Part shown: positions 4,449-42,064 of the stretch, one piece after another
Numbering within the stretch: the first letter of the stretch is position 1
Layout of the letters: each line of letters starts with the position of its first letter
From: Chamaesiphon sp.
Lineage (GTDB): Bacteria; Cyanobacteriota; Cyanobacteriia; Cyanobacteriales; Chamaesiphonaceae
NCBI GenBank assembly: GCA_965246715.1
Contig: CBDFFH010000002.1
Location: 1 to 64,000 of the forward strand
DNA length: 64,000 bases
Reading direction: 5' to 3'
Notes under the pieces: model-generated
Databases searched by the model: none
What the model was told of the DNA's origin: nothing
What the model saw: only the letters and a program-made list of their open reading frames with translations
Translations under genes and position numbers: made by a program

Positions 4449-4485
4449 GTATCTCGATAGTTTATAATTAGAATTATTTAATAAA

Positions 4486-5679: not shown

Positions 5680-5771
5680 CTGGATGTCAATACACTAAAC
5701 AAACCCTTGTTGATAACTTACATTTGTTAGATTGTGGCGATAAGATAAATATAAATCCTGATAAATCTCTA

Positions 5772-6740: not shown

Positions 6741-6753
6741 GGAAAATCAACTT

Positions 6754-9922: not shown

Positions 9923-9937
9923 ATAGAATAGATTTTT

Positions 9938-9957
9938 GTAGGGTGGGCACTGCCCAC
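9938..9957 (+). repeat. GTAG-type REP, class A (GTAGGGTGGGCAnTGCCCAC). Other copies at 29039-29058, 29251-29271 and 30406-30426 (minus), 32811-32830 (plus), 33042-33060 (minus, degenerate)
   Basis: Six near-identical palindromes with a GTAG foot. Confidence 0.8.
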
Positions 9958-10042
9958 AGCAAGGATTTGAGATGCTTCTAGTCTTGTCGATCGGGTGCTT
10001 AGTTTTAAGTTACTGGTGGGTGGAACCCGGATCTGGGGGAGG

Positions 10043-10114
10043 CTTGTCTTGGCTCATAGTCGGTGCACCGACTATAGCTTTTCGCGTCGGGAAACCCGAC
10101 GGGCGCGAGCCGCT
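10043..10114 (-). mobile_element. Small structured dispersed element AG-CGG...CAAGAA/CAG family (longer copy with an extra palindrome)
   Basis: Shares ends with 21891-21940 and 59851-59900; sits in the loop of a TCTGGGGGAG/CTCCCCCAGA hairpin. Confidence 0.55.
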
Positions 10115-10523
10115 CCCCCAGACCCCCCGTTGAAGGGCGGGGTGCCGCCCCTCAAACTCCCCTGCACAAGGGTCGATCTGTGGGTAGCTTAGAGCGCTTC
10201 GCATTAGCTTCGCACTGTGGGTCGATCTGTGAATTGGATTTGTGGATCGGGTTCTTAGATTTCTAATATCTACGATATTTCAAAAACCAGAAGTTATCGA
10301 TTGTCCATCCTTATCCCTAACTCAGGTTCCCTTAGTTCGTTAAAACGAACTTTTGCTCCTAGCCCCAAATTCATTTGAGGGCGATTCGGGAGCGAAGCTA
10401 GGAGACATCGATTCTCCAAGGAGCAACTTGAGCCAACGCACATTCTCATCCCAATTTCACCTTGATTTATAACAACAGATTTATATTTTTGTCCACTTTA
10501 TTTTTGATTATTGGAGCAAACTG

Positions 10524-11801
10524 ATGACGACACCAACAATGAGCGAACCGAAGATCGAGAAATCGATCGATACATTACCAAAATGCCAATTTTGTCAACA
10601 TCCACTGACGCATACGCTGGTCGATCTGGGGATGTCGCCTTTGTGTGAGAGTTTTGTGAGTGCCGATCGCGTCAATCAAATGGAGGCATTTTATCCGCTG
10701 CATGTGCGTGTATGTGACAATTGTTTGCTGGCACAGCTAGAAGCCTATGTGAGTCCAGAACATATTTTTACTGAGTATGCCTACTTTTCCTCGTTTGCGG
10801 ATACTTGGCTGGAGCATTGCAAGGCTTATACGGCGATGATGGTGGAACGATTTGGACTAAACGAACAGAGTCAGGTGATCGAACTGGCGAGTAACGATGG
10901 TTATTTGCTGCAGTACTTTGTCGAGCGCAAGATTCCCGCTTTGGGAGTCGAACCAGCAGCGAATATTGCTAAAGTAGCGATCGCGAAAGGAATTCCGACG
11001 ATTAATGAATTTTTTGGCCGAGAATGCGCGCGAAAATTGGTAAGCCAGGGCAAGCAGGCGGATCTGATTGCGGCGAATAACGTCTTGGCTCACGTTCCCG
11101 ATCTGAACGATTTTGTAGCCGGAATTAAAATCTTGCTCAAGCCTCAAGGTGTGGCAACTGGTGAGATTCAGCATCTGATGCGGTTGATGGAGTCGAATCA
11201 ATTCGATACGATCTACCACGAACATTTTTGCTATCACACCCTCTCGACGCTAGAAAAAATCTATGCCGCGCATGGGATGACGATTTTTGATGTGGAGGAA
11301 CTACCAACGCATGGCGGATCGTTGCGAATTTATGCTTGTCATCAAGACGATCTAACTAAACCCGTCAGCGATCGTGTTATCGATCTCAAAGAGCGCGAAC
11401 GTGCAGCTGGCTTTACGTCGATCGATCGCTATACCAATTTTGAGGAACAGGTACGCGAAACCAAACGCAAGTTACTGGATTTCCTGATTCAGGCGAAGCG
11501 GGATGGTAAAACTGTCGTCGGTTATGGCGCACCAGGGAAAGGTAACACGCTACTAAACTATTGCGGCATCCGCACCGATTTTCTCGACTATACGGTCGAT
11601 CGCAATCCCTACAAACATGGGATGTTCTTGCCAGGAACGCACATTCCGATTTATCCTCCCACCAAAATCCAGGAAACCAAACCGGATTATGTTTTAATTT
11701 TGCCCTGGAATTTTAAGGATGAAATTATGCTGCAAATGAGTGGCATTAGTAAATGGGGTGGCAGATTCGTCGTCCCAGTTCCCGAACTGACTATTTACTA
11801 G
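10524..11801 (+). CDS. NDP-hexose C-methyltransferase (class I SAM-dependent, zinc-ribbon N-terminus)
   Basis: CxxC, DLG.SPLC, ELASNDG, DTIYHEH, GYGAPGKGNTLLN, LPWN. Confidence 0.9.
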   Translation: MTTPTMSEPKIEKSIDTLPKCQFCQHPLTHTLVDLGMSPLCESFVSADRVNQMEAFYPLHVRVCDNCLLAQLEAYVSPEHIFTEYAYFSSFADTWLEHCKAYTAMMVERFGLNEQSQVIELASNDGYLLQYFVERKIPALGVEPAANIAKVAIAKGIPTINEFFGRECARKLVSQGKQADLIAANNVLAHVPDLNDFVAGIKILLKPQGVATGEIQHLMRLMESNQFDTIYHEHFCYHTLSTLEKIYAAHGMTIFDVEELPTHGGSLRIYACHQDDLTKPVSDRVIDLKERERAAGFTSIDRYTNFEEQVRETKRKLLDFLIQAKRDGKTVVGYGAPGKGNTLLNYCGIRTDFLDYTVDRNPYKHGMFLPGTHIPIYPPTKIQETKPDYVLILPWNFKDEIMLQMSGISKWGGRFVVPVPELTIY

Positions 11802-11830
11802 AGCGGAGCGGGTAGGGAGGGGAATTAACT

Positions 11831-11907
11831 ATCCCCTATCCCCTATCCCCTATCCCCTATCCCCTATCCCCTATCCCCTATCCCCTATCCCCTATCCCCT
11901 ATCCCCT
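11831..11907 (+). repeat. STRR heptamer (ATCCCCT)x11
   Basis: 11 perfect copies counted, ending 4 nt before ATG 11912. Confidence 0.95.
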
Positions 11908-11911
11908 AAAC

Positions 11912-12475
11912 ATGCGGTTCACCCAAACTTCTCTAAAAGATGCCTATATCATCGAGCCAGAACGGCTTGAGGACGAGCGAGGATACTTTGCGCGCACTTG
12001 GTGTCAGCAGGAGTTTGCTCAGCACGGACTCGACTCGGAGTTGTCGCAGTGCAATATCTCGTTCAACCACAAGCAGGGAACGGTAAGGGGAATGCACCTG
12101 CAACTGTTGCCATTTGCCGAAACCAAACTGGTGCGGTGTCCGCAAGGCGCGATGTACGATGTCATCATCGATTTACGTGCCGATTCGCCAACTTTCCAGC
12201 AGTGGACGGCGATCGAATTGACGGCGGCAAACCTCAGAGCATTGTATGTGCCCAAAGGGTTTGCCCACGGGTTTCAAACACTGATGGATGATACGTCGGT
12301 CTTTTATCAGATGTCGGGTTTCTACCAGCCCGCTCACGCACGGGGGTTTCGCTGGAACGATCCTACCTTCAATATCGACTGGCCCCAGCCAGTCAATGTT
12401 ATCTCCGAGCGAGATCGTGACTATGACGACTACAGTGCGGAGCTTTTCGCGCCTGTGCGAGCGGCTTCAGCCTAA
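11912..12475 (+). CDS. rfbC: dTDP/CDP-4-dehydro-6-deoxyhexose 3,5-epimerase
   Basis: DERG.F, GTVRGMH, DVIIDLR..SPTF, YVPKGFAHGFQTL. Confidence 0.9.
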   Translation: MRFTQTSLKDAYIIEPERLEDERGYFARTWCQQEFAQHGLDSELSQCNISFNHKQGTVRGMHLQLLPFAETKLVRCPQGAMYDVIIDLRADSPTFQQWTAIELTAANLRALYVPKGFAHGFQTLMDDTSVFYQMSGFYQPAHARGFRWNDPTFNIDWPQPVNVISERDRDYDDYSAELFAPVRAASA

Positions 12476-12525
12476 TTGGAGCTATCTAGCGGGCGCTCGA
12501 TCGAACCTTAACTAAAAACCAATGT

Positions 12526-13833
12526 ATGCAAGTTAATTCAGAAATCGACGATCCGAGGCAACTCGGTTTAGATCTGTATCGTCTCATGTCCGACCTGTAT
12601 CCGATCTGCCGGAGTATTACTGGCGATGGGGTTCGCAAGACCTTATATATTCTCCAGCAATACATTCCGCTGGAGATCCATGAAGTGCCCACGGGTACCA
12701 AGGTCTTTGATTGGACGGTGCCCAAGGAGTGGAATATCCGCGATGCTTATGTCAAGAACGATCGGGGCGAGAAAGTCATTGACTTTCAGGTATCGAATTT
12801 GCATCTGCTCAACTACAGCACGCCGATTCACCAACGGATGCCCTTGTCAACATTAACAGAGCATCTATTTTCCCTGCCAGAACATCCCGACTGGATTCCC
12901 TATCGTACTGCCTACTACCAGGAAGCATGGGGATTTTGTTTGAGTCATCATGCCCTGGAACAACTTGAGGATGGAGAGTATGAAGTATGCATCGATTCCT
13001 CCCTAGCAGCGGGACATCTCACTTATGGCGAGTATTATTTGCCAGGGGAAACCGCTGAAGAAGTTTTGCTCTCATGCCATGTTTGTCATCCATCTCTGTG
13101 CAATGACAATCTCTCTGGCATCGTGCTGGCAACATTTCTGGCCAAACAGCTCGGTTCGTTGCCCAGACGCTATTCCTATCGCTTTGTGTTTGTCCCTGGG
13201 ACGATCGGATCGATTACTTGGTTGGCACTAAATGCCGATCGTACCGATCGCATCGCCCACGGACTGGTAATATCAGGGGTCGGCGATGCTGGGACGATGA
13301 CTTATAAAAAAAGTCGGCGTGGCAATGCCCAGATCGATCGGATTGTCGCCCATGTCTTGCAACATGCTGGCAAACCATATTCGATCCAAGAGTTTTCCCC
13401 ATACGGTTATGACGAGCGCCAATACTGTTCGCCAGGATTTAATCTGCCTGTCGGACGCTTGGGTAGAACGCCGTTTGGCAAATATCCTGAGTATCACACC
13501 TCTGCGGATAATTTGGATTTTGTCAAGCCAGAGGCTCTCGCCGATTCGTTGAATATTTATGCAGCCGCGATCGAGATAATCGAGCGCGATCTGACTTATT
13601 TAAATACCAATCCTTACTGTGAGCCGCAACTGGGCAAACGCGGTCTCTATAAAATGTATGGGGGAATGCAAACGAGCGAAGATGAGCGAATGGCACTGTT
13701 GTGGGTGCTGAACTTATCTGATGGGCAACATAGTCTACTGGATATCGCCGAGCGATCGGGGATCGACTTCCAGATAATTTCCAAGGCAGCGGATGCGTTG
13801 GCCCAACATGACTTGTTGCAAAAGTCCAGCTAA
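12526..13833 (+). CDS. DUF4910/M28 aminopeptidase-like polysaccharide biosynthesis protein
   Basis: PICRSITG, FDWTVP.EW, CHPSLCNDNLSG, DERQY.SPG, EYHTSAD; C-terminal HTH. Confidence 0.85.
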   Translation: MQVNSEIDDPRQLGLDLYRLMSDLYPICRSITGDGVRKTLYILQQYIPLEIHEVPTGTKVFDWTVPKEWNIRDAYVKNDRGEKVIDFQVSNLHLLNYSTPIHQRMPLSTLTEHLFSLPEHPDWIPYRTAYYQEAWGFCLSHHALEQLEDGEYEVCIDSSLAAGHLTYGEYYLPGETAEEVLLSCHVCHPSLCNDNLSGIVLATFLAKQLGSLPRRYSYRFVFVPGTIGSITWLALNADRTDRIAHGLVISGVGDAGTMTYKKSRRGNAQIDRIVAHVLQHAGKPYSIQEFSPYGYDERQYCSPGFNLPVGRLGRTPFGKYPEYHTSADNLDFVKPEALADSLNIYAAAIEIIERDLTYLNTNPYCEPQLGKRGLYKMYGGMQTSEDERMALLWVLNLSDGQHSLLDIAERSGIDFQIISKAADALAQHDLLQKSS

Positions 13834-13899
13834 AAAGTTCGATGTTAGCGATCGTCACAAATTTTGGGTCGCTTTAGCCTAATTATCATAAGTGCAGCT

Positions 13900-14640
13900 A
13901 TGTCAACATTTTTAGGTCGAGTGGCAGTGGTTACGGGTGCTAGCAGTGGTATTGGCAAAGCAATCGCGCAAGCGCTTGCCGCCGAGGGTGCAACGGTGTG
14001 TTTAATTGGGCGAGATCTGGACAGACTAACGGCTGTTACGGCATCTTTACCTGCAAGCAAGTCCAACATTTTTAACTATCAAGCAGATTTATTAGTGGAC
14101 GCAGATATCCACCGATTGGTGGAAACAATTGCGTCGGAGCACGGCCGGCTCGATCTGTTAATCCACAGTGCGGGTATTATCTTGATGGGCAATATCGAAA
14201 CAGCTAAGATTGAAGATTTCGATCGGCAATATCAGCTCAATGTTCGCGCTCCATACTTGTTAACTCAAAAGGCTTTGCCGCTAATCGAAGCTTGCCGGGG
14301 GCAAATCGTGTTAATCAATTCTAGTGTTTGTTTGAATGCCAGAGCAGGCATCGCTCAATATACAGCTACCAAGCAGGCATTGAAAGCGGTTGCTGATTGT
14401 TTGCGCGCTGAGGTCAACGCTGATGGCATCCGTGTCATTAGCTTTTACTTGGGGCGCACCAATACTCCCATGCAAGCAGCCATCTATCAACAAGAAGGCC
14501 GAATGTACCAACCCGATCTGGCGATCCAGCCAGAAGATGTCGCCGAAACCGTACTTCAGACACTGGCAATATCACATACAGCCGAAATCACTGATGTTAA
14601 CATCAGACCAATGAAAAACTTAAGTACAAACTACAAGTAA
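13900..14640 (+). CDS. Short-chain dehydrogenase/reductase
   Basis: TGASSGIG and YTATK motifs. Confidence 0.9.
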   Translation: MSTFLGRVAVVTGASSGIGKAIAQALAAEGATVCLIGRDLDRLTAVTASLPASKSNIFNYQADLLVDADIHRLVETIASEHGRLDLLIHSAGIILMGNIETAKIEDFDRQYQLNVRAPYLLTQKALPLIEACRGQIVLINSSVCLNARAGIAQYTATKQALKAVADCLRAEVNADGIRVISFYLGRTNTPMQAAIYQQEGRMYQPDLAIQPEDVAETVLQTLAISHTAEITDVNIRPMKNLSTNYK

Positions 14641-14656
14641 TCAGGAGCAATATATA

Positions 14657-15457
14657 ATGAAAGTCGTACTATTTTGTGGCGGTCTGGGCACGCGATTGAG
14701 AGAATATTCGGAAACGACACCAAAGCCAATGGTCGAGATCGGCTACCGCCCGATTATTTGGCATCTCATGCGCTATTATGCCCATTTCGGGCACAAAGAT
14801 TTCATCCTCTGCCTGGGATATAAGGGCGATTTTATCAAAAATTATTTTCTTAATTACAACGAATGCTTGTCCAATAACTTTACTTTGTCTGATGGTGGTA
14901 AAAGCGTTCGCGTCCACAATAACGATATTGAAGATTGGACGATTTCCTTCGTCGATACCGGACTAAATACAAATATCGGCCAACGCTTGAAGATCGTACA
15001 ACCCTATCTAGAAGGGGAGGAAGTTTTTCTAGCTAACTATGCAGATGGCCTGAGCAACCTGGATCTCGATGTGTATCTCGATCGGTTCTATAAGCATGAC
15101 AAGATTGCCAGTTTTCTAGCCGTCCAACCTTCGCAATCATTTCATGTAGTTTTTCTTAATGGTGATTCATTAGTCGAAAATATTCAGTCTGCAGATCGAT
15201 CGGATTTATGGATTAATGGTGGTTTTTTCGCCTTCAAACAGGAAATATTCGAGCACATTCAAGATGGGGAAGAACTCGTACTCGCTCCCTTTCAGCGGTT
15301 GATTCAAAAGCAAGAGTTGGTAGCATACCGAAATCCCGGTTTTTGGGCTTGCATGGATACGTTAAAGGAAAAAATGATGTTCGATGAGATGTATGCCAAC
15401 GGTAAAACTCCTTGGGCAGTCTGGGATGCTCCATTAACTGAAACTTTAAGTAGTTAA
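14657..15457 (+). CDS. rfbF: Glucose-1-phosphate cytidylyltransferase
   Basis: CGGLGTRL, PKPMVEIG, WINGGFF, GFWACMDT. Confidence 0.9.
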   Translation: MKVVLFCGGLGTRLREYSETTPKPMVEIGYRPIIWHLMRYYAHFGHKDFILCLGYKGDFIKNYFLNYNECLSNNFTLSDGGKSVRVHNNDIEDWTISFVDTGLNTNIGQRLKIVQPYLEGEEVFLANYADGLSNLDLDVYLDRFYKHDKIASFLAVQPSQSFHVVFLNGDSLVENIQSADRSDLWINGGFFAFKQEIFEHIQDGEELVLAPFQRLIQKQELVAYRNPGFWACMDTLKEKMMFDEMYANGKTPWAVWDAPLTETLSS

Positions 15458-15655
15458 ATCGTTCAAACAATCACAGCTTTGGAGAATCATCAATCAGCGA
15501 TCGATGCGATCGAGATCACAGTTTTGCCAAAACTTTTGTTTTTATTCATAGATTGCATAATAAGACATTGTGCGGATGTATGTTTTAAGTATGTGATATA
15601 AAATGTGATTCTTAATCGATCGTGTAGTATTCGCAATTATCAAAGTGCCTATCAT

Positions 15656-16309
15656 ATGATGAAATTTAATCTCGATCGGGAAGAGGACTCTCCATATCGG
15701 ATACTTTGTCTTGGCGCTCACAGTGATGACATTGAAATTGGCTGTGGTGGAACTTTATTGAAGTTGATGGAGCTATATCCCAACTTACATATTCATTGGG
15801 TAGTATTGGGTGCTAACGGACAGCGCGAGCAGGAAGCGTCGAACAGTGCTGCGGGTTTTCTAGCAGGGATCGCCGATCGCAAGGTTAGCATTCGCGGTTT
15901 TCGAGATGGCTTTTTCCCTTACATGGCAACTGAAATCAAAGAATATTTTGAGGAAATCAAGTTTGGAATCGTACCCGATCTAATTTTGACGCATTATCGT
16001 GAGGATCGGCATCAAGATCATCGGTTGATTTCTGACTTAACTTGGAATACGTTTCGGGAACATACAATTTGGGAATACGAAATTCCAAAGTATGATGGCG
16101 ATCTTGGCTCTCCCAATCTGTTCGTTCATCTCAGCGAAGAAATTTGCCGTAGGAAAATCACCAACCTATTCGAGCATTTCCAGAGTCAGTCAAACAAAGG
16201 ATGGTTCACCGAAGATACATTTTTAGCAATGCTACGCATCCGGGGAATGGAGTCGAATTCACCTAGCAAATATGCCGAAGCATTTTACTGTCGAAAGATG
16301 ATCGTCTAA
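15656..16309 (+). CDS. PIG-L/LmbE family deacetylase
   Basis: GAHSDD.E, D.HQDH. Confidence 0.9.
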   Translation: MMKFNLDREEDSPYRILCLGAHSDDIEIGCGGTLLKLMELYPNLHIHWVVLGANGQREQEASNSAAGFLAGIADRKVSIRGFRDGFFPYMATEIKEYFEEIKFGIVPDLILTHYREDRHQDHRLISDLTWNTFREHTIWEYEIPKYDGDLGSPNLFVHLSEEICRRKITNLFEHFQSQSNKGWFTEDTFLAMLRIRGMESNSPSKYAEAFYCRKMIV

Positions 16310-16352
16310 TATAAAAAAATATTAAATCTATTTACTTGTAAGAAAGCTATAT

Positions 16353-17306
16353 ATGACAGAAAACGCACCTCTGGTCAGTATTGGCTGTCCAACCTATAAC
16401 CGACCAAAAGGGTTACGGCACATGTTGGAATGCTCGATCGCTCAAACTTATACTAATATTGAAATTATCGTGTCCGACAACTGCTCGGAGGGAGAAGAAA
16501 CTGAGAAAGTCGTGCGCGAATTGATGCAAAAAGATGCCCGAATTAAATATTTTAAACAGTCAAAGAATATCGGCTCTTTTAATAACTATCAATTCCTGCT
16601 CGCACAGGCTCAAGGCGAATATTTTGCTTGGGCATGCGACGACGATGCCCGCGAGCCTCAATTTATTGAATCTTGTATTAAAGAATTCGAGCGGTTAAAA
16701 ACGCCATTAATCGTGAATAGTTATTCCCAGCGCGTGGATAAACAATTAGATAAGGTAATTGCGATCGATAAGGGCTGCACCACAATCGGGATGCCTGCAT
16801 ATCAACGTTATATCAAATATATCTCCACAATTTATACCGAACAGGCCGCAGTTACCGATATAAATTACGGGGTCGTTAACCGGGAAGCATTAGTAACTGC
16901 AATGCGAGATGTGCCGAATATTGCTGGTTGGGATCATGTCCTGTTAGCTCGGCTTGCTTTAGATGGAGAATTTTATACAATTCCCACTGTAATGATGGAA
17001 TCTGGAGCTTCTGGAATGAGTGTCAATCATGCCAATGTGATTAAAACTCAGCTTGTTAGTGAATCAAAATCCGCAACGATGCCCGTTTGGGTCAGGCAAA
17101 CATACCAACAACGAACGATTTGGAATTCACCAAGTCTCACTAGATTTGAAAAATTATATCTATCAACCTGGTCTTATCTTTATTACTTTACAACGCATGG
17201 GCTGAAAATGTGGGTAATAAGATTATTTCCAGAGCTTGTTTCATTGTTTAGATATCGTAATCCTCAGCGTAATAAAGGTACTAGATCGCCATATAAATCG
17301 CATTAA
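16353..17306 (+). CDS. Glycosyltransferase family 2
   Basis: VSIG.PTYN, IIVSDNCS, DDD. Confidence 0.9.
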   Translation: MTENAPLVSIGCPTYNRPKGLRHMLECSIAQTYTNIEIIVSDNCSEGEETEKVVRELMQKDARIKYFKQSKNIGSFNNYQFLLAQAQGEYFAWACDDDAREPQFIESCIKEFERLKTPLIVNSYSQRVDKQLDKVIAIDKGCTTIGMPAYQRYIKYISTIYTEQAAVTDINYGVVNREALVTAMRDVPNIAGWDHVLLARLALDGEFYTIPTVMMESGASGMSVNHANVIKTQLVSESKSATMPVWVRQTYQQRTIWNSPSLTRFEKLYLSTWSYLYYFTTHGLKMWVIRLFPELVSLFRYRNPQRNKGTRSPYKSH

Positions 17307-17593
17307 CTGCCATGTCAGAGCGGATTAGTTGCAATCGACAGCCGATCGTCTGTCTCAACTAATGTATTAATTATAACTAGAGATTCAGCTAAATGATTAT
17401 TGACATTTTGGATTTTTTTTGGCAATGATAAGAACGAAGATAGATCTGTCAAAACATTAGATCGATATCACCAAAAGTTGTGACCGCGATCGCAACTAAA
17501 AATTAGCGAACTCGAACTCGACTCAAAATACCGATACTAGTTCCGATCGAAATTTTCTCTTCAAACACACATAGTTCACCTCGGAGCGATCGA

Positions 17594-19030
17594 ATGACCG
17601 ATCCAAAAATACTCGACCGTACCAACAGCACCTGGAATACGGGAGACATCAGGGCGACCAAATTTTTAATTCGGCGGCGAACAGTCATTCGCGGCATTGG
17701 TCTAATCTTGCTGATGTTGTTAGATGCTTTGATGATTTGCTGGGCGTGGACGATCGCCGATACGCTCGGCACACCGGTCAATGGGATTCATCTATTTACA
17801 TCGATCGTCCCAATTTTAGCCCTCAGCGTTGCAACTCTAGCCGCTTCGGGGCACTACGGTAGTGATGACAAATATCATACGCTGGCGAAATTATTTAAAT
17901 CGCTGACACTAGCTCAGTTTGTCCTACTCATTGCCGCTTTTTTCTATCAACCTGGCGTTTGGGTATCTCGATCTGTTTTCATCATTGCCTGGTTACTGAG
18001 TATCATTTTTATAGCTGGCGAACGATTATTGCTCGATCTTGCGATCGCCCAAACTCGCAAGCGCAATCCAAAATTGCAGCACCCAGTATTTCTGATGGGC
18101 GATCGATCCGGCATCGAAAAAGTTCGCAAACTCTTAAGACGCTCTCAACAATTTCGCGTAGACGGAATTATCGATCTCTCAGTCTGGGATATCGAGCATC
18201 AATTAGACCAGATTATCGATCGCATCCGTGCGCTCAAAATCAGTGAAGTGTTTATTTGCTCGCATCAGTTGGTGACAAATCAGGTGGTATTATTCTGGCA
18301 TTTGAAGTCTGCAGGCGTACATTTGCGGATCGTACATACCGAGCTAGAACTGCCACAACACTGCTCTGAGACTAAGATGATCGAAGAAATACCCACAGTC
18401 CGGTTTAAATCTTTACCGATTCTCGGGGTTGATTTCCGGCTGAAATGTTTTTTGGATCTAATTGCTTCATTTTTGATTTTGATACTGATTAGTCCGATTC
18501 TGCTGATCGTGGCCATCGCGATCAAATTAGACTCGCCAGGGCCAATTTTCTATCGACAGTCCCGGGTGGGACTCAAAGGAACTCATTTCCAAGTCTGGAA
18601 GTTTCGGACGATGGTGGTAAATGCGAGTGAATTACAAAAAGAATTAGAAGCTCAAAATGAAGTTCAAGGCGGCGTACTCTTTAAAATCAAAGACGATCCG
18701 CGAATTACAAAAATTGGTAAGTTTCTCCGGCGCTATAGTCTGGACGAGCTACCCCAATTGATCAATGTCTTACAGGGTGAAATGAGTCTGGTTGGCCCCC
18801 GCCCATTGCCATTACGTGATGTGGAGCGTTTTTCTAAAGATCATTTTCTGCGGCATGAGGTTTTACCTGGGATTACAGGTTTGTGGCAAGTCAAGGGCCG
18901 ATCGAATGTCGATTCGGATGATGTCTTCTATTGGGACATCATGTATATCTTGCAATGGTCGCTGGCGCTGGATCTGAATATCTTGTTTCAGACGATCCGG
19001 GCCGTGTTAACCAGGGAAGGGGCATATTAA
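17594..19030 (+). CDS. Undecaprenyl-phosphate sugar phosphotransferase (WcaJ-like priming GT)
   Basis: KFRTM, DDPRIT.IG.FLR..SLDELPQ, SLVGPRP, PGITGLWQV. Confidence 0.92.
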   Translation: MTDPKILDRTNSTWNTGDIRATKFLIRRRTVIRGIGLILLMLLDALMICWAWTIADTLGTPVNGIHLFTSIVPILALSVATLAASGHYGSDDKYHTLAKLFKSLTLAQFVLLIAAFFYQPGVWVSRSVFIIAWLLSIIFIAGERLLLDLAIAQTRKRNPKLQHPVFLMGDRSGIEKVRKLLRRSQQFRVDGIIDLSVWDIEHQLDQIIDRIRALKISEVFICSHQLVTNQVVLFWHLKSAGVHLRIVHTELELPQHCSETKMIEEIPTVRFKSLPILGVDFRLKCFLDLIASFLILILISPILLIVAIAIKLDSPGPIFYRQSRVGLKGTHFQVWKFRTMVVNASELQKELEAQNEVQGGVLFKIKDDPRITKIGKFLRRYSLDELPQLINVLQGEMSLVGPRPLPLRDVERFSKDHFLRHEVLPGITGLWQVKGRSNVDSDDVFYWDIMYILQWSLALDLNILFQTIRAVLTREGAY

Positions 19031-24775: not shown

Positions 24776-25970
24776 ATGACGACGGAATTAAAACCGAGCG
24801 ATAAATGGAAAATAATCCCTTGGCGAAAGCTGAGAAAGATTGTCTTCATGTCACGATGTTCAAAAAGGGATATTCGACAACCTTGGAAAAAAAGGTATTG
24901 AGAAAAGAATCCTGGAACTGGACATCGAACGGTGTTTCAACGCTATCGACCACAAATTCATTATGCGAAGCGTTCAACTACCAAGAGCAGCAAAAACCGG
25001 ACTCTTCAGAGCTATCAAAGCCGGAGTTAGAGGAGAGTTCCCTATCTCAGAGTCAGGAACACCTCAAGGCGGGACTATCAGCCCCTTACTTGCCAATATC
25101 AGCCTACATGGTCTTGAAGATCTTGGACACCAAGTCAGATGTAAAAGTATCAGGGGTGGAAGAGGTATCGACGCAATAAACGGATTCCGTTATGCAGATG
25201 ACGTAGTGTTTATTCTCAAGCCCCAAGACGATGCTATAGCCTTGCGAGAAGTAATTGACCGATTCTTAGGAATAAGAGGGTTAAAAGTAAAAGAAGCAAA
25301 AACCAAATTAGTACAAAGTACAGAAAGTTTCGACTTCCTTGGATGGACATTTGCTGTCAGAACCAATGACAAATTTATTTCTACACCCAGTCGTAAATCT
25401 GCAAAGAAAGTAAAGGCAAAAGTCAAAGAGATGATGAAAGATAGTCGATTCAATCTTGAGGAAAGAATCGATAAATGCGGTTCTATTATTCGAGGATGGA
25501 GAAATTACCACAAATACTGCGACATGAGTAGTCATGACTTATGGTCATTAAGATTATGGGTATGGAAATTCATACGCAAGCAAGGCAGATACAATCGTCA
25601 CCAAACCAACAAGGTTATTGAACGAGCATTTCCCAAAATTTCATGGAAAGTAAATAGTCATATCAAAGTAAAAGGGGATAAATCACCTTTTGATGGAGAC
25701 ATGATTTACTGGTCAAAACGGGAAAACTCTAACTATAACGGGATGACTGTAAATCTTCTGAGCAAACAAAAACACAATTGTACTTCCTGTGGATTAAAGT
25801 TCTATCCTGGGGACATTGTAGAAATTCATCATAAAGACGGAAACCATATCAATTGGAAGCTGTCCAATCTTGAAGTTTTACATCGAGAATGTCACCAACA
25901 CCAAGCCATACACGGTGAAGTGGGAGTCAGAAAGGCAAGCAGCCCATTAAAGGGTGGTAAGGCTTGTTAA
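24776..25970 (+). pseudogene. Outer intron-encoded RT/maturase/HNH with a frameshifting internal deletion of RT0-RT2
   Basis: MTTELKPSDKWKIIPWRKLRKIVF jumps out of frame to SCHDVQK...LDIERCF...GTPQGGTISPLLAN...RYADD...HNH (EIHH.DGN...HRECH). Confidence 0.8.
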
Positions 25971-26005
25971 GTAAATGTGAACCAGGAGCGTAGTGAAGGG
26001 AAACT

Positions 26006-28437
26006 GTGCGCCGTGGTACGCACTGATTGAATTGCCAACTCAGTTGGCTGGAGTTCAGGGTAACTGACTCCAAGGCGAACAACTTACCTAAACCCGAAAG
26101 GGCAAGGGGACAAGAGCATGTTCGTAAAGCGGAGAATAACAGAAAACGTGTATGTTATGGCTCTGCAACGCCTGAACGATATGGTTAAAGCTAAACTGCC
26201 TGAACCCCAATATCCAGAGGTGGAACTGCACATCCTTCGGTATCACGTTTGTACACCGATGTCACTGGTAGCCATTAATTCAACTTTCGTTAATGGTACA
26301 CCCTGACCAGTGAGCAATAAGTAATGAACTTATTCAAGGATATGAGTAGGAACCTAAGTCGTTCTTTATACGTTCATCAGTGACGGAACATGGGATTGCC
26401 TAAGGGACGCGAGTCCTATGGTGACGGAGTTCTAATAGTAGTCGTGGGAGTAACGCCCCACCAGGGCAAACGGGAGAGCCGTTTACATGGCGAAGTAGAA
26501 CAGGTAATAAAGATGAAACAGAAATCGAGAGGTACGCGAGATGCGAACAGCCGAAACGATACTGAACATCATACGTGAACGCGGACAACGTGGGTTGCCA
26601 GTAGAAGATTTGTATCGACTGCTATATCACCCAGATTTGTACTTACGCGCCTACGCCAAGCTGAACAGCAACACAGGTGCAATGACACCCGGTGCTACAA
26701 AGGAAACGGTAGATGGAATGTCCCTGGAGAAAATTAATACCATCATTGAGGCTCTGAGATCTGAGCGTTATAGATGGACACCAGCGCGACGTACCTATAT
26801 CCCGAAGAAAAACGGTAAATTACGACCCCTTGGTATGCCCTCTTGGTCTGATAAATTACTTCAAGAAGTAATTCGTTCGATACTAGAAGCTTACTATGAA
26901 CCGCAATTTAGCGAACATTCTCACGGTTTCCGACCAAAGCGTGGATGTCACACAGCCTTGAAAGAAAATTACCCAAAAAGGTCGAGCTACAAAAGTGGTT
27001 TATCGAAGGAGATATTAGTGCGTGTTTTGACAGAATAGACCATACTATTCTGGTGGAAATACTACAAGATAAAATCCACGACAATCGCTTTATCCGACTA
27101 ATTAAGGGTTTGCTTGATGCAGGCTACTTGGAAAACTGGAAATACAACTCCACATATAGCGGAGTTCCGCAGGGTGCAGTGGTAAGCCCAATACTTTCCA
27201 ATTTGGTACTAGACAAACTGGACAAATACGTCGAATGCGAACTAATACCAGCATACACACGAGGTCTTAGAAGGATTGTTTACCCTCCGTACAGAGACTT
27301 AACTAAGGCTGCATCAATTGCCCGAAAAGCTGGAAAACTGGAAGCAGCACGGAAGCTGAACCAACAGGCACAGTCAATTCCGTCCCGTGACCCCAATGAC
27401 CCAAACTTTCGTCGCCTTTGGTACACAAGGTATGCCGATGATTTCTTGTTAGGAGTAGTTGGTTCAAAATCTGAAGCTGTGGAAATCAAACAGAAAATCG
27501 CCACGTTTTTTACGTGATGAGTTAAAACTGGAACTCAGTGATGAAAAGACCCTCATCAGCCATGCAAGGGATGAGGCTGCTAAATTCCTGGGGTACGAAA
27601 TTCACATCCTACATGCCGATGATAAACATGACCATCGTGGTCAAAGATGTATCAACGGTAGCGTGGGGCTAAGGGTGCCCAAAAGCGTTATTAAAGACCA
27701 TTGTCTTAAATACATGCGCTCTGGAAAACCAATACACCTGACACAAAGGGTCAACGATGATGCCTACAGCATAGTTAGCCAATATCAAGCGGAGTATCGA
27801 GGAGTAGTCCAATACTACCGTATGGCTTATAACCTCCACACGCTATCCTTACTTAAACGAGTTACAGAGCTTTCCCTCGTAAAAACTTTGGCAAAGAAGT
27901 TTAAAACCACTTGCCAGAAAATTTACAAGCGATATCGTGCAACCATTGATACAAAGGATGGCACTTATCGGGTGCTACAAGTAACAGTGGAACGTGATGG
28001 AAAATTACCTCTGAAAACTTATTTTGGTGGAGTTTCTTTGCAGTGGAACAAGTGGGTCGAAATTGATGATAATCAGGCAAATCATATCTGGAACGGACGT
28101 AGTGAAGTCGTTCAACGCCTTTTAGCCCAAGAATGTGAAATTTGTGGAGCAACGGACAATATTGAAGTCCATCATATTCGCAAATTAGCAGATATTAAGC
28201 AACAAGGATGCAAAGAACGTCCAGAATGGATGAAGAAAATGTCGGCACGTAGACGTAAAACTTTAGTAGTTTGCCGTCAATGCCACGAGAAAATTCAATA
28301 TGGTCGCTACGATGGTGAAGCCTTCAAACGTAAAAATTACCGGAAAGCTACGTGATACGGAAACGGTCATGCGTAGTTTGGAGGGGGGTGGTTGGAAAAA
28401 GTACCAGTAATGGTAACTCGCTGGCTACCTACCCTAC
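26006..28437 (+). mobile_element. Inner group II intron (ML/IIA-like) inserted in domain V of the outer intron
   Basis: 5' GTGCGCCG; DV 28345-28379; DVI with bulged A at 28431, 7 nt from the CCCTAC end; LtrA-like ORF. Confidence 0.9.
26541..28355 (+). pseudogene. LtrA-like RT/maturase/HNH with three +1 homopolymer frameshifts (possibly sequencing errors)
   Basis: AY..L.SN.GA.TPG, YIPKKNGKLRPLG, SHGFRPKRGCHTAL, EGDI..CFD, GVPQG, RYADD, CEICG...EVHH...CRQCH. Confidence 0.85.
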
Positions 28438-28884: not shown

Positions 28885-29500
28885 CGATCGAATGCCATCA
28901 ATAGCGATCGATTCAAGTAAAGACGATCGAATCATGTAATAGATGCGAGCGATCGAGCCAATAAATAGCGATCGCATTTACCGAAATCGATCGATCGTAA
29001 AATGAATTCAAACCCTTGCTCTGTCTAGATTTGAAGTGGTGGGCAATGCCCACCCTACTGGGACGACCTGAATCAAAATTGACGATCGATATTATCGATC
29101 GAGGATCGCTTTGCGATCGATTATTAATGTTCGGTCGCAGAATTAACGATCGAATCTCATCAGCCACGATCGATTCAAGTAAAGACGATCGAGTTAATTC
29201 ATCAAGTGCGAGAGAATAAGCCAAAGTTGTTGCTCCGCACAAGCTTGTCTGTGGGCATCTGCCCACCCTACAGCTGATGGCTACTTTATATCAGCAGATT
29301 TACTGAAAGCAAATTGACTAGTCGTTAGGGAGCATAGACTTAGAGGGTGCTGTGGTCGCTAGCATAGATTTGGTTGACGATTTTCCCGACGTTCGATCGT
29401 TTCGATCGGTCCGCGTTCGTCGATCGGGATTAGGATGGGATATAATTACGAATATGTCTCTGACAACATACTATCTAAAGACCCGATCGATCTAGCAACA

Positions 29501-29863
29501 ATGACATGGATAGTTCAGTTTGAGGAAGATTTTGAACGAGAGTTTGACAGTTTGCCGCCGGAAGTTCAAGATATCCTGTTAGCGAAAGCGGCATTTTTAG
29601 AGGAGTTTGGGCCAGACTTGGGACGACCTCATGTGGATATTCTGCAAGGGTCTGAGTATGCCAATATGAAAGAACTCAGGTTCAATGCGATGGATGGTGT
29701 CTGGAGAGTTGCCTTTGCTTTCGACCCGCTCCGTCGTGCAATGCTCTTAGTTGCAGCTGATAAGTCAGGTGTTAGTCAAAAACGATTTTACCAGCAGTTA
29801 ATTAAGAAGGCAGATCGTAGATTTACAGATCATCTCAATCGTTTACAAGAAGAGAAAAACTAA
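29501..29863 (+). CDS. Type II toxin, RelE/ParE superfamily (HigB/Gp49-like)
   Basis: GP.LGRPHVD.L.GS..NMKELR...WRVAFAFDP.R; TATAAT at 29441 and an imperfect TATGT...ACATA palindrome upstream. Confidence 0.85.
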   Translation: MTWIVQFEEDFEREFDSLPPEVQDILLAKAAFLEEFGPDLGRPHVDILQGSEYANMKELRFNAMDGVWRVAFAFDPLRRAMLLVAADKSGVSQKRFYQQLIKKADRRFTDHLNRLQEEKN

Positions 29864-30207
29864 TGGGAACTACACTTCGCGCTAAACTTCAGAGTTTACC
29901 CCCAGAAAGACAAGCTAAAATCCAGGCGATGGCTGACGATCTAATTGCTGAGGAGATGACTTTACGCGCTCTGCGCCAAGCTAGACAATTGACTCAGGTA
30001 CAGGTAGCTCAACGGCTAAATATCGGTCAGGATGCGGTTTCTCGGATGGAAAAACGCACGGATTTACATCTATCTACTTTGATGGAAGCAATTCGAGCGA
30101 TGGGTGGTGAGTTGCAGTTAGTAGTGAAGTTTCCAGATCGACCTTCTGTAAGATTATCTGGTTTTCAAGATTTAGGTGAAAGCTCTTTGGACTCGGTAAT
30201 TGAATAA
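29863..30207 (+). CDS. XRE-HTH antitoxin (HigA-like)
   Basis: LRQARQLTQ...VSRMEKRTD..LSTL...GGEL; start overlaps the toxin stop. Confidence 0.85.
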   Translation: MGTTLRAKLQSLPPERQAKIQAMADDLIAEEMTLRALRQARQLTQVQVAQRLNIGQDAVSRMEKRTDLHLSTLMEAIRAMGGELQLVVKFPDRPSVRLSGFQDLGESSLDSVIE

Positions 30208-30428
30208 GATATCACTCACTATACTCGATCGATCTAAATGATTACGCTCGCATGTAGCAATACCAGCGATCGAATGTCATCATACCCGTTCGCGTAGCGT
30301 ACCGGAGGTAATCGATCCAAATATCACGATCGAGTTCGATCGATCGTGATACTTGGGGCGAGATTGAGCCTTAATCCGAATTTATCGCTTCGGATAAGGT
30401 TGTCCGTGGGCACCTGCCCACCCTACGG

Positions 30429-32777
30429 CTAGTTGTCTGTAACGTTAACGGTTTGAGTGGTGATGCCGCCGCGATTGTCTAGAACTTCGAGTTTGACTGG
30501 ATAGTTGCCGTTATCGAGGAAGGTGTGGTCGATCGATCGTACTTGAATTGGTGTGGTTGCGCCGTTAATATACCAGCGGTAGGTGAGGGGGTCGTTACCG
30601 ATGTCGGTGGCGGTGGCGGTGAGGGTGGTGATGGTTCCTTCGGTGATATTGTTGGGAATGGTAATGGTTTGGATGGTGGGTGGAAGGTTATTAATCGTCA
30701 GGTTTACGGTGGCGAGATTGGAAACTTGTCCGTCGGAGCCGAAGCCGAGGTAGGTGAAGCTATCGATGCCTACATAGGTGGGATCTGGGGTATACGTGTA
30801 GGTAAAGTCCCCTCCTGGGAGGGGTAGGGGTGGGTTCAGGGTGATGGTACCGTGCTGGGGTTGGTTGATGACTTGGATCTGGGTGATGTTGGTGTCGTTG
30901 GTAGTGAGTTGGGTGGTGGTGAAGGTGAGGGGGGTGTTTTGGTTGGTGGCTAGGGTGTCGTTTTTGGTGATGGGGATATTTTGGGTGTCGGTGAAGAGTT
31001 TTACGTCGTCGATGGTGACGGTGCTGGTTTTGGCACCGAATCCTAAGAGGTTGAAGTAGAGGGTGGCTTGGGTGGTTGGGGCGACTTGGGCGAGATCGAT
31101 CGTAACGATGCTACTGTTGTTACCTAGAGCGGTAATGGTGACTTTATCGCTCTTATGAATGGTGCCGTTGGCTTGGATATTTAGGAGAGAGTCGGTATGG
31201 TTTAAGCCGACACTGGTTCCGGCGAGGGGGTTGAAGGTGTTGGTGTCGAGGAGGGCGACTTCAAAAGCATCGTTGGCGGCTTTGGTGGTGTCGCCTGGGA
31301 CGAGATGGTTATCCTTGATGGTAAACTGAAGCGTCTTCGCGCCTGTGGGGATGATGAAGGCTTGGGTGAGTTCGGAGAGCTTTTGGGACTGCTCGGTGAG
31401 GGTGGCGGTGCCGTTGATGATATTGGTGGCACCTAGAGTGTTCCAGGTGGTGGGGGTGGTGAAGTCGCCGTTGGTGATACCGATGAGGGCACCAGCAGTC
31501 AGATGTGCGGTGTTAACATTACCGACACCCGACACCCCACCCCCGACACCCAAATTCAGAGCATTAATAATCGCCCAATCCATAACCGATGGTAGTTTGC
31601 GAACGCCAGGTTTGAGGCTGGTGTTCATCAGGTCGTAGGGGTAGAGGGTGCTGTCGAGGTGGGAGCCGTCGGGGGTGAGTTTGGTGGTGAGGGTGTCGGT
31701 GATGAATTTGTTGCCTTTGACGTATTTGTTGAATTCGCTGTAGCCGTTGATGATGCCGAGGGTGTGTCCCATCTCGTGGAGGATGGTGGTGAGGAGGTCG
31801 TATTTAGCGGAGGCTGGGCTGTTGGGGGTGGCTTGGAAATAGGAGTCTGTTCCGGTGAATTCGCTATTATCCTGTGGGGTGGTGTCGAGGAACCAGCCGA
31901 CTCCGTTGGCATCGTCGTCGATGGTGATGGTGGCGGTTTTGAGGGTGCCGTTGGTGTTGTAGCTGGTGATTGTGCTTTCAGCTAGTTGTCCGGTGGGGAG
32001 ATCTTGGATCTTAAAGGCAAGATCGATTGGGGTGGTTGTATGCCAGAGGGTTTGGGCGGTATTGTAGATGCTAGTAACTAATGGAGCGTTTTCAGAATGA
32101 AGAAGGTCATGACTGTTGATGAGTTGTTGGCTCGCTATGCTGCTGGGGAGAGAGATTTCAGTGAAATTAGATTGGTCGGTATCATTGGCAATCGAACCTT
32201 TAATGGCTTTAGCTTGAAAGATGTTAACTTGAGTGGGGCTAACTTTAGCAAGGGGTACTTTTTGGATGGTCAACTGGAGCGAGTTAACTTGAGTGGGGCT
32301 AATTTGAGTGGAGCTAGAGTGACAGATATCATGATCGAGGATGTCGATCTGAGTGGGGCTAATTTGAGTGAGGCTGTCTTGCAAGGTGCTAGTGCTAGAA
32401 GCACTTCCATGGAAGGAGCTAACTTCGAGAATGCCATCTTGGCTGAGTCGGGAATGGATGATTCCTGTCTCAACAATGCTAATTTCAGCGGTGCCGAACT
32501 CTGTGAAGCATTCTTCACAAGATGTACTTTTACAGGTGCTACTGTCAATATCAACGAACTTCGCGGTTGTTATCTGACTGAAACCCTTTTGCCCGATGGA
32601 GAGATTGTTACCAACGGCATCCAAGATTGAGTTGGCTGCAAAATTTTCATCTGCTAATAGTGATGCGCTACTAGGTAATAGTCCATCACTTCTCGATTCA
32701 ATTGCTTCTTCTATAAAATCTGGCAACTCTGATAAGAAATCATAGTTAGTTAGAGTCTCAAGGTAATTAATACTCAC
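30429..32777 (-). CDS. Large extracellular-type protein: HExxH metallopeptidase-like domain plus cadherin/Ig-like and PKD-like domains; N-terminal part overlaps an antisense gene
   Basis: DDDANGVGWF, YDLLTTILHEMGHTLG, DLMN; PQHGT...YTYTPD..YVGIDSFTY; GNDPLTYRW...DNGNY.V.L.V.D. Confidence 0.75.
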   Translation of the reverse strand: MSINYLETLTNYDFLSELPDFIEEAIESRSDGLLPSSASLLADENFAANSILDAVGNNLSIGQKGFSQITTAKFVDIDSSTCKSTSCEECFTEFGTAEISIVETGIIHSRLSQDGILEVSSFHGSASSTSTLQDSLTQISPTQIDILDHDICHSSSTQISPTQVNSLQLTIQKVPLAKVSPTQVNIFQAKAIKGSIANDTDQSNFTEISLPSSIASQQLINSHDLLHSENAPLVTSIYNTAQTLWHTTTPIDLAFKIQDLPTGQLAESTITSYNTNGTLKTATITIDDDANGVGWFLDTTPQDNSEFTGTDSYFQATPNSPASAKYDLLTTILHEMGHTLGIINGYSEFNKYVKGNKFITDTLTTKLTPDGSHLDSTLYPYDLMNTSLKPGVRKLPSVMDWAIINALNLGVGGGVSGVGNVNTAHLTAGALIGITNGDFTTPTTWNTLGATNIINGTATLTEQSQKLSELTQAFIIPTGAKTLQFTIKDNHLVPGDTTKAANDAFEVALLDTNTFNPLAGTSVGLNHTDSLLNIQANGTIHKSDKVTITALGNNSSIVTIDLAQVAPTTQATLYFNLLGFGAKTSTVTIDDVKLFTDTQNIPITKNDTLATNQNTPLTFTTTQLTTNDTNITQIQVINQPQHGTITLNPPLPLPGGDFTYTYTPDPTYVGIDSFTYLGFGSDGQVSNLATVNLTINNLPPTIQTITIPNNITEGTITTLTATATDIGNDPLTYRWYINGATTPIQVRSIDHTFLDNGNYPVKLEVLDNRGGITTQTVNVTDN
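32097..32630 (+). CDS. Pentapeptide repeat protein nested antisense in the 30429-32777 ORF
   Basis: Typical cyanobacterial N-terminus MTVDELLARYAAGERDFS, A(N/D)LSG repeats, C-terminal LPDG; GGAG 10 nt upstream. Confidence 0.85.
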   Translation: MKKVMTVDELLARYAAGERDFSEIRLVGIIGNRTFNGFSLKDVNLSGANFSKGYFLDGQLERVNLSGANLSGARVTDIMIEDVDLSGANLSEAVLQGASARSTSMEGANFENAILAESGMDDSCLNNANFSGAELCEAFFTRCTFTGATVNINELRGCYLTETLLPDGEIVTNGIQD

Positions 32778-32858
32778 CCGCCAGTCTTGCCATCTATTCC
32801 ACTCAGAAACGTAGGGTGGGCACTGCCCACAGACAATTTAGAGCCGAAGTCATGAGAA

Positions 32859-40234: not shown

Positions 40235-41302
40235 CTATCTCGAGCCGACAAGATGGCCATTATGGACGAATTTATCTGCCAAAACCTTTTGATATACAGC
40301 TTCGTAGCCTGCGGTCATTTGAGCGACGCTAAAGCGGTGGGCGACATATTCGCGACAGCCTGCGCGCGAGATCTTCGGAATTTTCGCTACCGCTGCGATA
40401 CAGTCGGCGACGGTATTGCAGATATAACCACTGACTCCATCGACAATAATTTCCGGCACCGAACCGAGATTCATGGCAATGACGGGCGTACCCGCCGCCA
40501 TCGATTCGATCGTGACTAGCCCAAATGGTTCCCGCCAATTAATTGGGAATAACGTGGCAATCGCTCGACCCATCAGTTCGTTTTTCATCAAGTGGTCGGC
40601 TTCACCCAAAAACTGAATCTGCACGCCGTCGATGTGTGGCTCGATCTCCTGCTGGAAATATGCCACATCGACAGGATCGACTTTGCCAGCCATTTTCAAG
40701 GGGATACCGGTTGCTTTGGCAATCTCGATCGCTCGATCGGGGCCTTTTTCAGGCGAGATCCGGCCGAGAAATGCTAGATAAACAGGTTCGTCAGCAGTTG
40801 GGAAGAAATGATGCGAACTGACATCGATGCTGTTGTAAACCGTTGCGACATGATTTAAGCCCAGCCGATCTTCCCGCTGGGCATTGGAAATGCTGACATA
40901 CGGTTGCGTCTTGGCATAAGCGAACATCTTCTCATTGTCTGGAGTGAAGATGCCATGCAGTGTGTGAATTGTCGGCGTTTTGGTCAGTTTGCTATAAGGT
41001 AGCGCCGCGCAGCCCATATGTGAGTGAATCAGATCGAACTCTCCAGCTCGTTCGTACACCTGAGCTAACTGGAGCATTTCATAAATGCCAGGTTCCACGA
41101 TCGTGGGATCTAACCGTAATGCTTGAGGATGGATCGACTCTAGTTTCGCGGCGGTAATCGAATCTCCCGATGCAAATAGAGTAACGTCATGCCCTCTGGC
41201 GACTAACTCATCTGTTAATAGTCCGACTACTAATTCTATCCCTCCATATGCTGGTGGGGGAACCCGTTCCCACAAAGGTGCAATTTGGGCAATTTTCATC
41301 AT
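40235..41302 (-). CDS. GT4 glycosyltransferase
   Basis: VPP.AYGGIE, GRISPEKG, W.EPFGLV.IESMA.GTP. Confidence 0.9.
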   Translation of the reverse strand: MMKIAQIAPLWERVPPPAYGGIELVVGLLTDELVARGHDVTLFASGDSITAAKLESIHPQALRLDPTIVEPGIYEMLQLAQVYERAGEFDLIHSHMGCAALPYSKLTKTPTIHTLHGIFTPDNEKMFAYAKTQPYVSISNAQREDRLGLNHVATVYNSIDVSSHHFFPTADEPVYLAFLGRISPEKGPDRAIEIAKATGIPLKMAGKVDPVDVAYFQQEIEPHIDGVQIQFLGEADHLMKNELMGRAIATLFPINWREPFGLVTIESMAAGTPVIAMNLGSVPEIIVDGVSGYICNTVADCIAAVAKIPKISRAGCREYVAHRFSVAQMTAGYEAVYQKVLADKFVHNGHLVGSR

Positions 41303-42064
41303 AATTCTCCTGAATATTGTGAGCTATTCAGTGAGTGGAACTGCATAATCTCGCTAATCTATTTAGATTAAACATCGCTATCCGAGCGATTGAAAATGGC
41401 TCTACCTACACTAATAACTCAATAAAACTATCTCGAATGAACTTAGATCGAGAGTGTAAGAACTTGTGCCAGCAATACTTGTAGCTATTGCAGCTCTTAC
41501 TATTTAGTTTTGTGTTTATTTTGTTAAAGTAACTTAACTATAGATGTAAAACCTTGTTACTGCAATAATCTTAACAAAATCTTTATATTTTAGATTTTAA
41601 TAAATTCTCTGCTGTAAATATCTCGATACTGCCTTGGATTCAGCGATTTTTACAGCTAAAAAGACATGTGTTTTAGTACATCGATCTGCGCTAACGCTCG
41701 AATGAATCGATCGATTTGTCGCGATTATTTGCAGCGTAAGTAATATTTAATACCGCTCGATTCTCTTAATTCTAAAGGAGCGGCTTTAGCACCAGTATGG
41801 GGACACCAACGCGGATGCATTTTGGTATGGCTACTGCCGATCGACAGGGGTGGTGCCATCCACGTAAAAACAGCAAATCGCTAGCGTGAAACTACCATTT
41901 CAAAACCACCCAAGCTACAGCGGGGTGTCTACCCCATCCCAATCTCCCGACCCAATTCTCGCCAGGGCCGATCGCCAATGGCTTGCATCGCAGCTCTGAA
42001 AATCTCGATCGAGTGCTTGACATATTCCCATATACCTGTGATATGATGAATAGTGTTATCGCAA

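Follow-up and report, generated by a model that had tools for sequence, protein, structure and literature searches.

Related Systems

Genes lying antisense inside the gene of a large secreted protein are known from Shigella, where the small set1AB genes are located within the autotransporter gene pic, which encodes a large secreted protease; set1AB are a proposed toxin of narrow range, whereas the nested gene described here is likely an antidote and is polymorphic. It is a pentapeptide-repeat gene (positions 32097–32630, plus strand) in a 64,000-nt stretch of DNA, hereafter the window, from Chamaesiphon sp. (GenBank assembly GCA_965246715.1, contig CBDFFH010000002.1, positions 1–64,000; G000:C2:1-64000, G000 being the source genome). 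The gene is contained completely, on the opposite strand, in the linker between a NucA-type nuclease and a metalloprotease domain of a giant host protein, of which the window holds a remnant.

Few protein genes that lie antisense inside another gene in their entirety have good support in bacteria, and the cases treated in the relevant sections of PMC9927249 and PMC8850804 were single-species or genus-restricted. The olg1 and olg2 genes of Pseudomonas aeruginosa are, as described in sections of PMC8850804, similar in being long embedded antisense open reading frames (ORFs) with stop-codon depletion and purifying selection, but they are young, overprinted and taxonomically restricted. The nested gene, in contrast, belongs to an old family (PF00805) with non-nested homologues and many variants across cyanobacterial families, and a functional tie to its host is likely.

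The nuclease shares its family and catalytic residues with NucA of the Anabaena NucA/NuiA pair (PDB 2O3B), in which the partner gene also lies on the opposite strand just downstream. Unlike NucA, it is a domain of a giant protein, and its partner is a pentapeptide protein nested in the host frame and not a member of the NuiA family. Polymorphic toxins with Tox-NucA domains (Zhang et al., 2012; PMC3482391, main text) also combine a large repeat protein, a variable nuclease with GH/N/E residues, an HExxH peptidase proposed to release the toxin, an adjacent partner gene, orphan cassettes and partner-gene arrays; they differ in that here the toxin is internal in the nested form. The immunity proteins given there for Tox-NucA are Imm36, SUKH and NTF2, cyanobacteria do not appear in the Tox-NucA row, and the word pentapeptide does not occur in the 300,000 of 357,715 characters of text covered, the additional files being outside our scope.

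Pentapeptide proteins that mimic DNA are represented by MfpA, which does so on gyrase, and Qnr (PMC8145042, in part). The nested proteins are alike in repeat family and net negative charge, but their proposed target is a nuclease, and scores were far below the NCBIfam equivalog cut-offs for gyrase protectors (MfpA, 46 bits vs. 360; Qnr, 36 bits vs. 240). In type VI secretion regions, GH-E HNH nucleases, likewise of the His-Me finger type, stand next to YjbI-like pentapeptide genes to which no role has been assigned; they belong to another nuclease group and secretion system, and the passage concerned in PMC5714182 does not mention overlap. The effector TseG itself contains pentapeptide repeats, according to a passage in PMC10933656. 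No account of a nested nuclease/pentapeptide system was found in the literature covered, most subscription journals and supplements (those of PMC3482391 in particular) lying outside it, which may bear on novelty; the gene architecture was not found described there.

Conservation and Selection of the Nested Arrangement

As proposed in a first-pass annotation made from the sequence alone, the plus ORF was found to be a pentapeptide gene with its own GGAG, containing tandem A(D/N)Lxx repeats and matching PF00805 with 82.3 bits (cut-off 20.2). The minus frame was confirmed to read through it in exact codon register without a stop, with possible start codons at 32777, 32726, 32624, 32384 and 32273 and the next one at 31772 inside the HEMGH motif, which leaves the gap without starts that had been noticed before. 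None of the 19 Leu and 14 Ser codons of the pentapeptide gene was TTA, CTA or TCA, the codons that read as stops on the antisense strand, compared to 8–77 such codons in four neighbouring genes. With the codon usage of the stand-alone pentapeptide genes of G000, a stretch free of these codons has a chance probability of about 4e-5, and 11 of 4799 windows of 177 codons in long ORFs were free of them. Among the 28 pentapeptide ORFs found in G000, only the window gene and a gene on contig C36 lacked these codons; the stand-alone ones all contained 4–41 each (26/26) and do not avoid them equally.

Distinct loci from Chamaesiphon, Nostocales and other cyanobacteria were picked by the HEMGH (protease) domain alone and gave a set of 61; duplicates were left out, as were distant or partial HExxH matches (L014, L022, L023, L026, L029, L047, and L099), in which the nested gene was not seen. 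The protease domain was matched in 13 of 41 relatives and in 7 of 401 genomes drawn from across the phylum. Matches at 46 loci came from named genomes, among them Nostoc, Calothrix, Tolypothrix, Rivularia, Richelia, Anabaena, Desertifilum, and Aphanocapsa; several of these loci are plasmid-borne. An antisense pentapeptide gene was present directly upstream of the protease at 55 of the 61 loci, and at 52 it was in register without a host stop, so that homologues do carry the stop-free antisense gene that had been predicted. The three loci with a broken register had hosts also broken in the protease, and of the six without a nested gene, four are truncated, one has decayed and one lies at a contig end. 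The gene was present wherever the nuclease was complete (26/26 loci).

The nested proteins showed a median pairwise identity of 35%, and all 51 that were aligned matched PF00805 at E ≤ 0.001. Shine-Dalgarno-like words were found upstream of 38 of 52 nested genes. The length of the host linker followed that of the pentapeptide protein plus about 50 residues (r = 0.97), and a host His opposite the nested ATG was invariant in the 25 aligned nuclease-bearing hosts. In all 12 close pairs compared, the proportion of nonsynonymous differences (pN) in the pentapeptide gene was below that of synonymous differences (pS), indicating purifying selection, and the host linker was less conserved than the pentapeptide protein in 11 pairs and equal in one. 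Selection thus acts on the pentapeptide at the protein level, and on the host frame chiefly to keep it free of stops.

Non-nested family members provided a control. All 25 convergent members with a usable start (start calls of L166 and L171 were not usable) contained 2–19 TTA, CTA or TCA codons, and the aligned positions in their nearest nested relatives were mostly TTG or another Leu codon; TTG made up 61% of the Leu codons in nested genes compared to 20% genome-wide. That only one strand is coding, the overlap being a chance shadow ORF or an assembly artefact, is hardly credible in view of these stops in all 25 non-nested members. The window minus ORF is a truncated remnant that may well be untranslated, and antisense strands of pentapeptide genes read as pseudo-repeats; however, both frames were kept in 52 divergent loci, host frames of up to 10,783 aa contain no stop and have recognised domains before and after the overlap, and a contig from a public run, possibly of the source sample, was identical to 32105–32834 without any difference. 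Selection on both strands, as the first-pass annotation had suspected, is supported across many genomes, and we are nearly certain that the nesting is genuine and maintained by selection in full-length hosts.

Some loci contained more than one nested gene: three tandem pentapeptide genes in one open host frame, resembling an immunity array (L119:16-1480), and a double pentapeptide unit in another (L086:2763-3800). In an 8564-aa frame (G131:C83:8889-23228; L169, L109), two nucleases were found, and a separate pentapeptide gene is nested behind each of them; a non-protease domain follows the first module, so that nesting can occur without the protease. A record labelled Bacteroidota (L069) also contained the complete module, in a form close to the Nostocales copies, either by mis-binning or by transfer.

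Organization of the Giant Host Protein

The full-length host of G011 has 9337 aa, and that of G013, which reaches the contig end, has at least 10,783 aa. Their order, assembled from both, was CARDB repeats, He_PIG/Ig repeats, an RHS-like piece, nuclease, linker, protease, Ig, many PKD domains and Calx-beta/DUF4114. The overlap had at first been placed in the N-terminal region of a secreted protein; it is instead an internal linker of the giant protein, the large window ORF being a truncated remnant.

The toxin domain expected further upstream in homologues was found as a NucA-type Endonuclease_NS domain (PF01223) in a paralogue on contig C36 of G000 and in relatives. Its nearest solved structure was Anabaena NucA (E = 7e-77; fold match Z = 21), and the catalytic residues were kept (GH in 26/26, N in 24/26, E in 25/26). 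The protease appears, from its sequence and a structural model, to be a leishmanolysin-like metzincin: HE-x-GH was invariant, DGSH and DLMN were conserved, and the modelled fold of relative L079 matched leishmanolysin (1lml) with Z = 9.6 and a root-mean-square deviation of 2.5 over 141 aligned residues. We take DGSH to hold the third His and DLMN to be the Met-turn. In the 645-aa model of L079, used because the window protease domain modelled alone reached a predicted local distance difference test score (pLDDT) of 43, nuclease and protease were folded and the linker was not (pLDDT <50, mostly about 20). A mirror beta-helix formed by the linker, also considered, was not supported by this model, for which the alignment was shallow.

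HlyB- and HlyD-type genes flank the giant gene in G011, and an HlyD gene is located downstream of it in Nostoc flagelliforme; since these genes adjoin it, this large repeat protein may be the substrate of a type I export system. The G011 region (G011:C3:808778-858514; L032-L035) consists of an array of giant genes with two nuclease/nested-gene/protease modules, cut by insertion sequences, beside HlyB/HlyD. Annotation tables, which were incomplete, listed the giant gene alone for plasmids of Anabaena PCC 7122 and Gloeothece PCC 7822; the likewise incomplete table of N. flagelliforme contained a shortened pentapeptide gene and a host ORF cut short.

The Nuclease as Partner of the Pentapeptide Protein

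Pairwise identities of the pentapeptide proteins correlated with those of the nucleases (r = 0.55) and less with those of the proteases (r = 0.19), and nuclease and protease did not correlate (r = 0.00). The nearest neighbour of the pentapeptide protein was shared by the nuclease at 11 of 26 loci and by the protease at one of 26. Median identity was 36% for the nuclease and 67% for the protease, as for a variable toxin on a conserved scaffold. The metalloprotease was therefore rejected as the partner, since the pentapeptide varies with the nuclease and not with the protease; the toxin-immunity relation supposed by the first-pass annotation is favoured by co-variation, position and nuiA exclusion, with the nuclease in the place of the metalloprotease.

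A nuclease-centred search matched 163 of 401 genomes, and 71 nuclease loci were examined (30 returned, 40 picked by frame length and one from G000). All 39 examined frames of at least 600 aa were followed by a pentapeptide gene after the nuclease: 16 nested (seven already in the protease set), 22 convergent without overlap and one on the same strand, so that the gene lay on the opposite strand in 38 of 39, as in NucA/NuiA. The nuclease was C-terminal in 22–23 of these 39 loci and internal in the nested form. No nuiA was detected behind these 39 nucleases with a single query. The 32 shorter frames were followed by nuiA (15), a pentapeptide gene (4) or neither (13), and nuiA and a pentapeptide gene occurred together at none of the 71 loci. 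In Tolypothrix PCC 7601, nuiA is convergent behind nucA, which places the pentapeptide gene in the position of the inhibitor. In a FastTree nuclease tree, nested and convergent forms interleaved: the labels changed 14 and 13 times, and well-supported branches force at least 12 and at least 11 of these changes. The state has switched repeatedly; 28 short stand-alone nucleases formed one branch of their own (support 99).

Net acidic proteins were encoded by 52 of 52 nested and 18 of 21 convergent genes, compared to 16 of 26 stand-alone pentapeptide genes of G000. Orphan cassettes and arrays of partner genes, as known from polymorphic toxins, were also found. Oscillatoria PCC 7112 contained two tandem non-nested nuclease/pentapeptide cassettes after a giant gene with an ADP-ribosyltransferase domain at its end, and this gene and both cassettes share a pre-toxin region; on the plasmid sequence concerned (L101:1-11146), the giant gene carries DUF4114 and is followed by a gene for a 61-aa Cys-rich protein, possibly an immunity protein. 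Structure prediction of the L079 nuclease with its pentapeptide protein and Mg gave a complex score of 0.01 and a mark of 0.32, which was used neither for nor against an interaction.

Taken together, the nested pentapeptide protein is probably the cognate inhibitor of the NucA-type nuclease in a polymorphic toxin-immunity cassette, with the immunity gene antisense in the linker. The system is comparable to a polymorphic toxin paired with a partner like NuiA, except that the toxin is not C-terminal in the nested form and the partner is not of the NuiA family. The pentapeptide protein might also inhibit the nuclease where the latter is not a weapon but a surface enzyme acting on extracellular DNA, for nutrient scavenging or in biofilm remodelling; as with NuiA, the inhibitor would then only protect the cytoplasm until the nuclease is exported. 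NucA as the nearest structure, the protection of the cytosol by NuiA (a passage in PMC13522737), the adhesin-like hosts with many Ig/PKD repeats and the lack of a recognised translocation domain would fit such a role; we nevertheless consider it unlikely, since the nucleases are hypervariable compared to the protease, inter-strain conflict is indicated by orphan cassettes, pentapeptide arrays and the occurrence of an ADP-ribosyltransferase in this context, and many genomes, including G000, keep a separate short nucA as well. Quite improbable is that the nested gene is a real partner other than an inhibitor, e.g., a chaperone for nuclease export or an antisense unit coupling the expression of both genes. 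For most cyanobacterial pentapeptide proteins the function is unknown (PMC8145042, in part), the known DNA mimics among pentapeptide proteins target gyrase, and linkage alone could account for co-variation; against this, the gene sits at the nuiA position and excludes nuiA, is retained in orphans without nuclease and multiplied in arrays, and its protein sequence is under purifying selection.

Several observations weigh against the inhibitor reading or parts of it. The functional case consists of genomic association, and the co-variation figures are inflated by linkage and shared ancestry, the loci not being independent; if recombination breaks within the conserved protease, the pentapeptide gene would move along with the nuclease whatever its role. 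Weak tracking between pentapeptide and protease was also detected (partial r = 0.23, permutation p = 0.006). The comparison of both frames that had been suggested came out clearly for the pentapeptide and weakly for the host linker, where pN was near pS in several pairs and above it in one, so that the linker is weakly constrained as a protein. The nuclease profile was built from nested hosts, two listed long-frame matches and 95 unlisted matches lie outside the 71 loci, and nuiA was sought with one query alone. A simple type I export signal at the C-terminus is at odds with the 22 loci whose nuclease is C-terminal, and no route of entry into target cells was evident. Finally, the nuclease of the C36 paralogue is without the conserved Glu, and a full-length giant gene is absent from the G000 assembly.

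Under the inhibitor reading, the giant protein would be exported by the adjacent HlyB/HlyD type I system, and the metalloprotease may cut the unstructured linker and free the nuclease. The acidic beta-helix would bind the active site of the nuclease, perhaps as a DNA mimic, protecting the producer and its kin. Where the giant protein ends with the nuclease, the immunity gene would be the next gene, mostly convergent; where the giant ORF continues past the nuclease, it would read the antisense strand of the immunity gene, kept open by avoidance of TTA, CTA and TCA. Nuclease and immunity gene may be exchanged together, as a single cassette, ahead of the conserved protease; nesting would let the giant ORF run on without moving the immunity gene out of this cassette, and would make the pair hard to separate.

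More broadly, we incline to the view that this is a widespread cyanobacterial toxin system with toxin and antidote entangled, in which a new class of DNA-mimic pentapeptide immunity proteins is encoded antisense in the linker of exported giant nucleases, with repeated switches between nested and side-by-side forms and orphans scattered by REP/RAYT elements. If this is true, a large branch of the cyanobacterial pentapeptide proteins that is so far unexplained would be assigned a function; it often goes unnoticed since annotation shows only one strand. More than 50 independent sequences make the nested genes a family-wide case, for which non-nested members serve as built-in controls and the function can be tested; they are also a natural parallel to engineered gene entanglement. 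They open to test the origin and persistence of long overlaps, cyanobacterial competition, and the function of pentapeptide proteins, described as almost completely unknown in the part of PMC8145042 concerned.

The Window Copy and Its Surroundings

The features of the window copy are given in Table 1. The 782-aa ORF aligned to residues 8589–9330 of the 9337-aa G011 protein (67%). Only the last approximately 46 residues of the nuclease survive, the catalytic part being deleted at a 20-mer repeat that we take to be of the REP type, and the likely immunity gene is intact. The GTG at 32777, from which the 782 aa are counted, falls within the nuclease-tail match and was rejected, since it is very likely a Val codon in the last strand of the deleted nuclease domain; the 782-aa ORF is probably not a working protein. 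With only the nuclease tail left, REP-like repeats on both sides and no full-length giant gene, the window copy was classified as an orphan cassette, which would confer immunity without the weapon. A scan for promoters and terminators around it gave results at chance level.

Table 1. Features of the nested pentapeptide gene and the host remnant in the window.
Feature	Position	Strand	Remarks
Pentapeptide-repeat gene, intact	32097..32630	+	177 aa; nested antisense throughout; 25 D/E vs. 13 K/R; likely nuclease immunity protein
GGAG, Shine-Dalgarno-like	32083..32086	+	ATG 10 nt further on; read from sequence
Open host frame	30429..32837	-	802 codons, 782 aa from GTG 32777; giant-protein gene remnant, cut 5′ and 3′
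NucA-type nuclease, C-terminal tail	32669..32804	-	Nuclease profile positions 224-269, 34 bits; lower coordinate approximate
Host linker	32031..32663	-	Mirror translation of pentapeptide gene; S/I/T/Q-rich; predicted unstructured
Leishmanolysin-like zinc metalloprotease domain, predicted	31548..32030	-	From sequence and fold match of relative L079
HEMGH	31764-31778	-	In metalloprotease domain
DGSHL, putative third His	31656-31670	-	In metalloprotease domain
DLMN, putative Met-turn	31623-31634	-	In metalloprotease domain
Big_9/Cadherin_5 Ig-like domain	30690..30977	-	Family match
First PKD domain	30438..30689	-	Remnant stops here; full-length hosts go on with many more PKD
REP-like 20-mer, palindromic	32811..32830	+	At 5′ truncation point; 137 similar genome copies, ≤3 mismatches
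REP-like copy 2, inverted	30406..30426	-	Abuts 3′ truncation

The paralogue in G000 (C36:36536-40840) consists of a 1434-aa frame with 60% identity to the window frame over the aligned part; a different pentapeptide gene is nested at the same place, with the full DNA/RNA non-specific endonuclease domain just upstream. This cassette (G000:C36:36431-41879, L001) is also flanked on both sides by the REP-like repeat and adjoined by a Y1_Tnp (RAYT-like) transposase gene (41015–41611). The REP-like repeat was found at the 5′ break of 10 other truncated or 5′-cut cassettes, and it is suggested that orphan cassettes were captured via REP/RAYT. Contigs from the public run joined positions 31802, 31934, 32002, and 32163 to the repeat at about 32805–32811, with short sides, and are likely other strains' cassettes cut there.

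Directly beside the cassette, a Gp49 (DUF891) and HTH gene pair was found (29435–30207), presumably a HigBA-like toxin-antitoxin pair. Two genes for group II intron reverse transcriptases/maturases were located at 24805–28355, of which the second is broken up over three frames, and a surface polysaccharide cluster (O-antigen ligase, C-methyltransferase, sugar transferase) at 1681–19030.

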